Assembly: GCA_951406725.2 (NCBI GenBank)
Contig: OX597838.1
Location: 37,696,001-37,760,000 of the forward strand
Length of the DNA: 64,000 bases
Direction: 5' to 3'
From: Octopus vulgaris
Taxonomy: Eukaryota
Below are positions 7,936-9,367 of this stretch, piece by piece (position 1 is the stretch's first letter; every line of letters starts with the position of its first letter). Under the pieces are notes generated by a model. It did not search any database and was not told where the DNA came from. It saw only the letters and a program-made list of their open reading frames with translations. The translations under genes were made by a program, and so were the position numbers.

Positions 7936-8508
7936 TTCGAATCTTTGGACTACGGCCATAGCCTGGCACCACCTCGACATAATTTTGTCGAACAAAGTTA
8001 TCTTTCTTATTTGGAGTCTGGTACACATTTCATCGGTCTCTCTGGCCAAACTTCCAGATAAAAGGGGACATAAACAAACCAATTCGCGTTGTCAAGAGGT
8101 GACGGGGAACAAATACAAAAGCATTCACAACGAGCAAGAGCATACACAAGATCGGAAAGTGTCGCTGAAGAGGTCACGAAAGATTTCCTGACAATGGCCA
8201 TAAGTTAAAATAAGAACAGTAATAAACGAGTGAAAAACTAATATATACGTGTGTTTAATTGGCGAAAAAAGAAAAGACCATCCCGAAATACAACAACATC
8301 TGCTTCAATACACGATTTCACATCAGGAATTTTGCAACACAAATTCATAAACGCATATATATATATATATATATATATATATATATATATATATATATAT
8401 ATATATATATATATATATATATATACATACATACATACATACATACATACATACATATATATATATATATATATATATATATATAGGGAATCCTTCTATA
8501 TTAAGTTA

Positions 8509-8599
8509 CCTACGGACGTACGTTTCGGAATCAAGTCATTGTAGAGCATAAAAATTAAATAATTATGTCTTACCTGACTATTTTCCTCCTCAGAGTAGG
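8509..8599 (-). ncRNA. Type I hammerhead ribozyme, copy 1
   Basis: cctact-CTGAGGA-ggaa...ttcc-GAAA-cgtacg-TC-cgtagg; GUC cleavage triplet; palindromic stem III. Confidence 0.8.
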
Positions 8600-9104
8600 A
8601 CTCTTCAATCATAAATAATTGCGTCTCAATTATTAATAATTGTGTATTAAATTTGAAGGCACTAGAAGACATCACCTCAACTCATGGTACTGGTAAGGTA
8701 AGCCTTACCAGTACCAACGAATTCAAAGGGTGAAAGAGAGTATGTCACCATCCACCTTCCGCAAGCGTGCTGCCAAAAATAAGATGCTACGGTTTTTTTA
8801 CTGGGATGAAATACAATTATCAATAATATAGGGTGAAATTAATTAATTCAGAAATAATCATTAATTTCATCAAGTAGAGTTCGGCATGTAAAAGACCCAT
8901 TCAAGGAAGGTTTAAGTAATACTAATTAATTAAGGGTTTAGCAACGATTTGCCTCACCACACACCGAATTTAGAAATAGCAGTCAAAAAGTTTTGGCTAT
9001 TCCTTCTACTTAAAAGGTAGATCCCAGTAACACCAAAGCACTTAAAAAGCAAACGACGCAGACAAAAGAGAAAGAAATGACGGAAATCATTCTATATTAA
9101 GTCA

Positions 9105-9196
9105 CCTACGGACGTACGTTTCGGAATTAAATCAATTGCAGAGCATAAAAATTAAATAATTATGTCTTACCTGACTATTTTCCTCCTCAGCGTAGG
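9105..9196 (-). ncRNA. Type I hammerhead ribozyme, copy 2
   Basis: cctacg-CTGAGGA-ggaa...ttcc-GAAA-cgtacg-TC-cgtagg; perfect 6 bp stem I. Confidence 0.85.
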
Positions 9197-9367
9197 ACTC
9201 TTCAATCATAAATAATTGCGTCTCAATTATTAATAATTGTGTATTAAATTTGAAGGCACTAGAAGACATCACCGCAACTCATGGTATCAATAGCCAAAAC
9301 TTTTTGACTGCTATTTCTAAATTCGGTGTGTGGTGAGGCAAATCGTTGCTGAACCCTTAATTAATTA

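Follow-up and report, generated by a model that had tools for sequence, protein, structure and literature searches.

Animal non-LTR retrozymes are described, in the accessible text of two accounts (PMC7229834; 10.64898/2026.07.22.740005), as non-coding tandem units that carry a type I hammerhead ribozyme and are highly self-paired. As far as these sources go, the kind of element reported here is already known. The present family shares those features as well as a GC content of 35–37%, dispersal as monomers to multimers and the presence of Penelope-like elements (PLEs) alongside; each unit carries a type I hammerhead, is non-coding with less than 45% GC, and occurs in dispersed multimers. Its unit measures 580–600 nt, compared with 170–400 nt for the tested invertebrate retrozymes and the range of 51–972 bp given in the consulted part of Li et al. 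It also differs in its 60-nt stem II, and the accessible parts of the two accounts do not report a fixed two-site, two-armed anatomy or cut-to-cut fusions. They present circles as demonstrated for animal retrozymes, whereas the present family is known here from genomic DNA.

The available portions of the work on EN+ Penelope-like elements (PAc of Anolis, PMC11167929; Craig et al. 2021, PMC8557442) offer a second likeness. There too, reverse transcription starts at two internal sites and both strands are extended, the targets are AT/TA, one arm is inverted and 5′-truncated, partial tandems occur and a ribozyme lies upstream of the start sites. The present family has the same insertion anatomy, with two fixed 3′ ends, an inverted 5′-truncated arm and a microsatellite target, but it differs in having no ORF, in start sites about 105 nt apart as opposed to a 30–40-bp tail, and in a ribozyme with a full 6-bp stem I and a long stem II instead of the minimal form. 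The dimer-type hammerheads of PLEs and satellites, in the part of PMC4209133 available, likewise have a stem III of 1–2 bp with a palindromic loop and are predicted to form dimers; their helix II is 4–8 bp, whereas that of the family is an interrupted hairpin of 60 nt. In U6/LINE-1 chimeras, as presented in the accessible account (Moldovan et al. 2019, PMC6789731), RtcB joins cyclic-phosphate and 5′-OH ends and the product is then retrotransposed, as we propose here. The fusions reported below differ in that both ends are the predicted hammerhead products of two mobile RNAs, joined by ligation or by an enzyme jump. In the accessible literature we found no description of cephalopod or octopus retrozymes or hammerheads, or of fusions between two ribozyme cuts, and supplementary lists may hold a cephalopod example.

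The window copy and its two hammerheads

The window analyzed here is a 64,000-nt stretch of Octopus vulgaris DNA. The first-pass annotation had pointed to two tandem minus-strand hammerheads 596 nt apart, held in direct repeats of about 200 bp, with a long stem II, a palindromic stem III and no ORF between them, and each of these observations was borne out. A motif scan located two hammerheads of type I, whose C17 lies at 9111 in one and at 8515 in the other; the GUC triplets occupy 9113–9111 and 8517–8515. The repeats, 8486–8689 and 9082–9286, extend over 205 bp with 95.6% identity. Stem II measures 61 and 60 nt, and stem III reads A-CGTACG-T, i.e. ACGTACGT, in both hammerheads. No ORF of at least 100 aa was found between the two cuts; the longest ATG ORF of the window monomer taken as a circle is 58 aa, with 32–58 aa on the sense strand across four monomers. 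Both hammerheads score below the Rfam Hammerhead_1 gathering score of 34 (21.5 bits, E 0.02; 18 bits, E 0.29) because stem II is long, and the Rfam scan of the whole window was swamped by microsatellite matches.

The whole insertion (8486–9367, minus strand) consists of a short inverted arm and a sense arm of about 1.35 units, set between a (TA)n target tract on its 3′ side (8355–8485) and a (TA)n-rich one on its 5′ side (9366–10254). The inverted 5′ arm, 79 bp on the plus strand at 9289–9367, is the reverse complement of 8923–9001 (98.7% identity); it covers monomer positions 110–188 and begins at start site A of the family. The upstream repeat (9082–9286, minus strand) comprises monomer positions 422–596 plus 1–30 and includes the first hammerhead (9105–9196, minus strand), which is of the intact family type, with a 6-bp stem I, CUGAGGA, the 61-nt stem II, the palindromic stem III and a predicted cut after C 9111. 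The 596-nt non-coding monomer runs from cut to cut (8515–9110) and folds strongly on the minus strand (z −6.7). Within it lie the two putative start sites of reverse transcription on the minus strand, placed from arm ends across the family: A at 8919–8923 (monomer about 188–192) and B at 8811–8821 (monomer about 290–300). The downstream repeat (8486–8689, minus strand) holds the second hammerhead (8509–8599, minus strand), with a predicted cut after C 8515; the last 9 nt of the repeat are rearranged and the family 3′ part is missing. The copy stops about 21–30 nt past the second cut, where family arms reach about +190 or +295. Since the inverted arm starts at site A, the sense arm is expected to have started at B, so that about 265 nt would have been lost from the 3′ end. 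A private perfect hairpin of 32 nt (8685–8716), at the edge of the downstream repeat, stands in place of the family sequence at monomer 411–421 and is likely a template-switch or repair junction.

The second ribozyme is predicted to be impaired. At 8594 it has U where G is expected, so that the stem I pair beside the core is lost (pair probability 0.85 versus 0.0), a pair otherwise kept in 72 of 75 ribozyme rows, and forcing the active fold costs 7.2 kcal/mol as compared to 3.9 for the first ribozyme. The first-pass annotation had recorded neither this change, nor the inverted arm, nor the early stop after the second cut. The two repeats also carry different sets of three linked alleles, the downstream one having the set of another sublineage (L011, L023 and L076) and the upstream one the alternative set, which makes the window copy likely a mosaic of two templates. 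It is one of four among 46 old loci whose repeats differ at sublineage-diagnostic sites, and it probably derives from two templates or from later conversion. The designation of this site as the cleanest testable locus thus holds inside the window but not genome-wide, given its 6.1% divergence from the nearest of 29 full monomers compared, the stem I mismatch, the private hairpin and the lack of a family-type 3′ end. The window copy is an old, 3′-truncated and decayed member of its family, and tests would be better made on young copies elsewhere.

The fold was examined across 75 distinct ribozymes; a 76th (L049) was dropped before alignment, its match falling 3 nt short. At two of the four pairs that close stem II, both partners have changed (GC in 37 and AU in 36 rows; AU in 63 and GC in 12), and these double changes count as two inherited events, not as 48 independent ones. 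In the same rows 97.6% of the cells are paired, compared with 9–42% in slid controls. The invariance of the core in this alignment is no evidence, since the selecting pattern fixed part of it, and RNAalifold on the 75 ribozymes returned a weak alternative fold (−3.1 kcal/mol) instead of the hammerhead. Stem III is calculated at +2.4 kcal/mol as a hairpin and at −9.8 kcal/mol as an 8-bp duplex, values that the energy model would lead one to expect of a dimer ribozyme such as those in the accessible part of PMC4209133. Four monomers folded as circles gave z values of −4.3 to −7.5 (20 shuffles each), the −7.5 of the window monomer being owed partly to its private hairpin. These four have a GC content of 0.35–0.37, 63–66% of their positions are paired, and their ribozyme strand folds 32–45 kcal/mol better than the other strand.

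The window contains other elements of related interest. A distant sister at 57836–58520 (minus strand) has a unit of about 550 nt in TA tracts, a ribozyme cut at 58040, a stem II of 25 nt and a stem III identical to that of the family. At 26815–28030 there is a two-armed inverted element, likely another retrozyme, with canonical ribozymes at 27084 (minus) and 27871 (plus), a 12-nt stem II and arms that are 99% alike. Single type I ribozymes with palindromic stem III lie on the plus strand at 22849 and 59434, with stem II of 84 nt and 55 nt; a long stem II is common in the Octopus vulgaris genome. A truncated LINE-type reverse transcriptase (RT) at 10259–11600 (plus; RVT_1 E 6e-26), beside the TA tract, is unrelated to the retrozyme copy, and a small AT-rich palindromic element inside a TA tract (13367–13599) is possibly a minimal two-armed insertion.

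A non-coding family with two fixed ends

The window locus belongs to a non-coding family of about 580–600 nt in (TA)n that counts more than 2,000 arms, and the kind of element proposed at first pass, a non-coding unit with dimer-type hammerheads, was correct. Genome G000 yielded 2837 family candidates and 2282 exact matches of one 23-mer. The motif is not a product of chance: the word from +1 to +23 after the cut has 947 exact copies as opposed to none for a reversed control pattern. Arms were mapped at the 57 loci holding the first 100 listed matches of the 23-mer, on contig C1, a sample in which the exact match favors younger copies. The 3′ ends of the 86 arms mapped fell at about 188–210 in 47 (site A), at about 285–312 in 35 (site B) and elsewhere in 4, so that 82 of 86 end at two sites about 190 and 295 nt behind the cut. 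Where two opposed arms were present, 24 of 25 loci paired one A arm with one B arm. The 5′ ends were scattered. This two-site Penelope anatomy had been overlooked at first pass. The cut site was crossed in 44 of the 86 arms, twice or more in 11 and at most six times. In two-armed loci such as L132, L129, L100 and L110 the arms often meet at a near-identical monomer position, which suggests joining through local hairpins.

Monomers, dimers and multimers without LTR features are dispersed in the family, and complete ORF-free units stand head to tail. Thirty full monomers (581–602 nt) fall into a graded series of subfamilies, at most about 27% apart. The youngest subfamily (588–591 nt), in which arrays cross the cut up to six times with 0–0.8% difference within a locus, has the core CCGAUGA; this U4C change lowers hammerhead activity in vitro, according to the available part of PMC3088659. 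When monomers were compared, the units of one insertion grouped by locus, and rare variants were common to the units or arms of one insertion at 10 of the 21 young loci, 6 of the 26 of middle age and 17 of the 46 old ones, as predicted for a single small template. In two young arrays, L129 (G000:C1:50429500-50437500) and L156 (G000:C1:133661200-133667500), unit variants return every third unit; a trimer template or local block duplication could produce this pattern, of which one monomer circle gives no account. Fixation of A-to-I editing in the copies was rejected, as the shared changes favored neither strand, with 40 A>G as against 39 T>C (P 0.11). An older sister family, present at 16 of 30 loci in L218–L246, shares with the present family the core of the 110–300 region and has similar ends, with a stem II of about 30 nt.

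Footprints and fusions at the predicted cut

The cut position predicted at first pass gains support from family arms that end or are fused exactly there. A C precedes 927 of the 947 exact copies of the +1 to +23 word, leaving 20 exceptions. The exceptions comprise 7 point changes, 3 arms at 2 loci with an 8-nt microhomology deletion, and 10 junctions exactly at +1 that lead into foreign or inverted sequence. Junctions were also found at +2 in 6 of 19 matches (2 ambiguous by microhomology), and none at −1 in 3 matches, i.e. in 0 of 927 copies. Control positions, few and picked by the author, gave 3 of 12 matches at −3 (inversion junctions, two ambiguous) and 2 of 11 at −12, both with approximate denominators, and 3 of 30 loci read (32 matches) at +131, against at least 2282. 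The mean stop rate along the family is 0.21% per nt. By Fisher tests the excess at +1 has P 0.038 versus −12 and P 0.0013 versus +131 counted as 4. An excess at +1 and +2 with none at −1 is the expected trace of templates having their 5′ end at the scissile bond. The genomic junctions therefore suggest that arms stopping exactly at the cut likely record cleavage by the ribozyme in vivo before PLE-type copying. The remaining passes are nearly all uninterrupted, with 924 of 947 arms (about 98%) continuing exactly into GUC, which fits a ligated circle and also uncleaved multimers.

Two cut-to-cut fusions were found in total. In L204 (G000:C16:33247906-33250929), a two-armed family insertion, +1 is joined to 130 nt of the ribozyme of a 486-nt family. 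The foreign part ends at that family's own H17, with no microhomology collapsed at the junction, and the natural continuation of the 486-nt family in L194 and L155 differs from it. A search with a strict pattern for further fusions of the 486-nt family's cut end returned only L204. In the second case, L291/L309 (G000:C5:66724150-66724748), both arms join C17 of the retrozyme to +1 of a young autonomous PLE: they begin at the two ends of the PLE, run to its predicted cut and continue into retrozyme C17. This PLE encodes RT and endonuclease, matches the PLE in the window at 50–57%, and has a C-x4-C-x2-C linker and a minimal ribozyme with a U3-A8 core. The retrozyme stretch of one arm has 100% identity with young U4C copies. 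The locus was 1 of 10 matches, the other 9 being point changes already met.

The junction base differs between the two L309 arms (C versus G), so that the joining may have come about by ligation before copying, for which the U6/LINE-1 chimeras provide a precedent in the accessible account (PMC6789731), or by an enzyme jump. By either route, free ends must have existed at the predicted cuts. The L309 junctions also mean that the protein of this PLE copied retrozyme RNA at least once, and the two fusions together suggest that cut ends were likely joined in vivo.

The copying enzyme and the form of the template

The available part of PMC11167929 reports that purified PLE protein initiates reverse transcription internally, at two sites, and that both strands of AT-rich DNA are extended; that of PMC8557442 gives inverted 5′-truncated arms and TA targets as PLE hallmarks. 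Since the family has two start sites, inverted 5′-truncated arms and TA targets as PLEs do, a PLE protein is by analogy very likely its copying enzyme. Site B is similar to the distal end of the L309 PLE (top 0–2.4% of positions) and site A does so weakly (5–21%). By eye, site B also resembles the distal end of the PLE family represented in the window, so the start motif seems common to a clade. The window PLE (ORF 4318–5943, plus; element about 4313–6400) is 5′-truncated and has RVT_1 and GIY-YIG domains. Its family is very young and autonomous, with a 784-aa ORF, dozens of identical copies, 4.4-kb tandems, a minimal ribozyme with a U3-type core and a C-x4-C-x2-C linker. It was rejected as a partner, its best DNA match in 30 loci having an E of 0.066. 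Co-insertion at L270, where a PLE is directly joined to a family arm, was also rejected, since the PLE lies 0.2% from its closest kin and the retrozyme 1.8%, and the retrozyme unit has no extended DNA similarity to the window PLE or the L270 PLE. The unit is not itself an autonomous PLE, as it has no ORF with RT and GIY-YIG domains, and a plant-type LTR retrozyme, which would have a type III hammerhead in its LTRs and a 4-bp target duplication, was rejected on the type I ribozyme, the TA targets and the variable 5′ ends, target duplications being unreadable in TA tracts.

We favor, with some confidence, the view that the window holds an old, truncated copy of a hammerhead family whose RNA is cut by ribozyme pairs, ligated into circles and copied by a PLE protein into (TA)n from two fixed sites. 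Read-through transcription of tandem copies would yield RNA that two hammerheads, paired through their palindromic stem III, would cleave. The 2′,3′-cyclic phosphate would be ligated to the 5′-OH, which would usually close the monomer and on rare occasions link two different RNAs. A protein with RT and GIY-YIG domains would nick both strands of a TA tract, priming one arm at A and its partner at B, and would run round the template until the arms fell off and were joined. A circular RNA of 596 nt is, from the genomic copies, a putative product of this locus. Contigs from runs presumed to be RNA cover the window copy and a young copy, with neighboring repeats covered as deeply; such contigs give no strand, ends or level. 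It weighs against the favored view that, according to the accessible part of 10.64898/2026.07.22.740005, only one of nine Xenopus retrozyme dimers was cleaved in vitro. The earlier interpretation as a whole is partly supported.

An alternative that we consider unlikely has the same PLE protein usually copying a linear transcript, read through tandem source copies and left uncleaved, with the ribozyme cutting only a few percent of molecules and circles being incidental. The arms that continue into GUC would be expected of such a template, as would the period-3 variants of L129 and L156. The available part of PMC11167929 adds that a PLE can do without its ribozyme in vitro and that none of the RNA-seq reads stopped at the cut of that ribozyme. 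At least three crossings of the cut occur in 4 of 9 loci with the U4C core versus 0 of 21 with the canonical core, but this concerns one lineage, so that age confounds the link to the core. What speaks against a linear multimer is that the fold has been kept by compensatory changes along a lineage 20% diverged, that constant 5′ truncation should wear down multimers unless something regenerates them, and that cut-to-cut fusions require free ends and a joining step.

Still less probable, in our judgment, is efficient cutting without a ligase, in which monomers would stay linear, stem I holding them as "nicked circles", and the RT would jump from the 5′-OH end to the 3′ end. The base difference between the L309 arms and the 8-nt microhomology deletions at two loci, taken together, fit enzyme jumps rather than ligation, and the mosaic repeats of the window copy point the same way. 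Against this, the junction is exact in the 924 read-through arms, and point changes occur there about as often as at neighboring sites; in L189 the deletion is present in both arms and so was already in the template; and RtcB circularises animal retrozyme monomers in vitro, as stated in the available part of PMC7229834. It is highly improbable, and was already disfavored, that the copies are truncated terminal repeats of an autonomous PLE or DNA-level tandem duplications with no RNA unit of their own: Li et al. propose, in the accessible part of 10.64898/2026.07.22.740005, that PLE termini seed tandem arrays locally, and such expansion may explain the period-3 arrays, but the thirty complete ORF-free units head to tail, the dispersed copies with fixed ends and their own subfamily succession, and the RT fragments near family loci, which are separate insertions, all argue against it.

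Returning to the circle that we favor, what is new is base-exact genomic evidence of cleavage and heterologous joining. Cutting in cells by weak dimer-type hammerheads, and the enzyme that reinserts retrozymes, have so far been argued mostly from co-occurrence. The present family adds base-exact footprints in DNA, for cutting as for the joining of ends, together with a pair of start sites and a PLE protein as candidate; as its subfamilies have canonical and U4C cores, one in vitro assay could separate the circle, the nicked circle and the linear multimer. We tentatively suggest, as a possibility rather than an expectation, that the germ line contains a pool of hammerhead-cut RNAs from different mobile families that are ligated cut to cut, so that the genome would be a fossil record of cleavage and ligation in vivo. 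The same ligation would close the 590-nt circle copied from two sites by a Neptune-like PLE protein, and fusion may swap bodies and start sites between retrozymes and PLEs.
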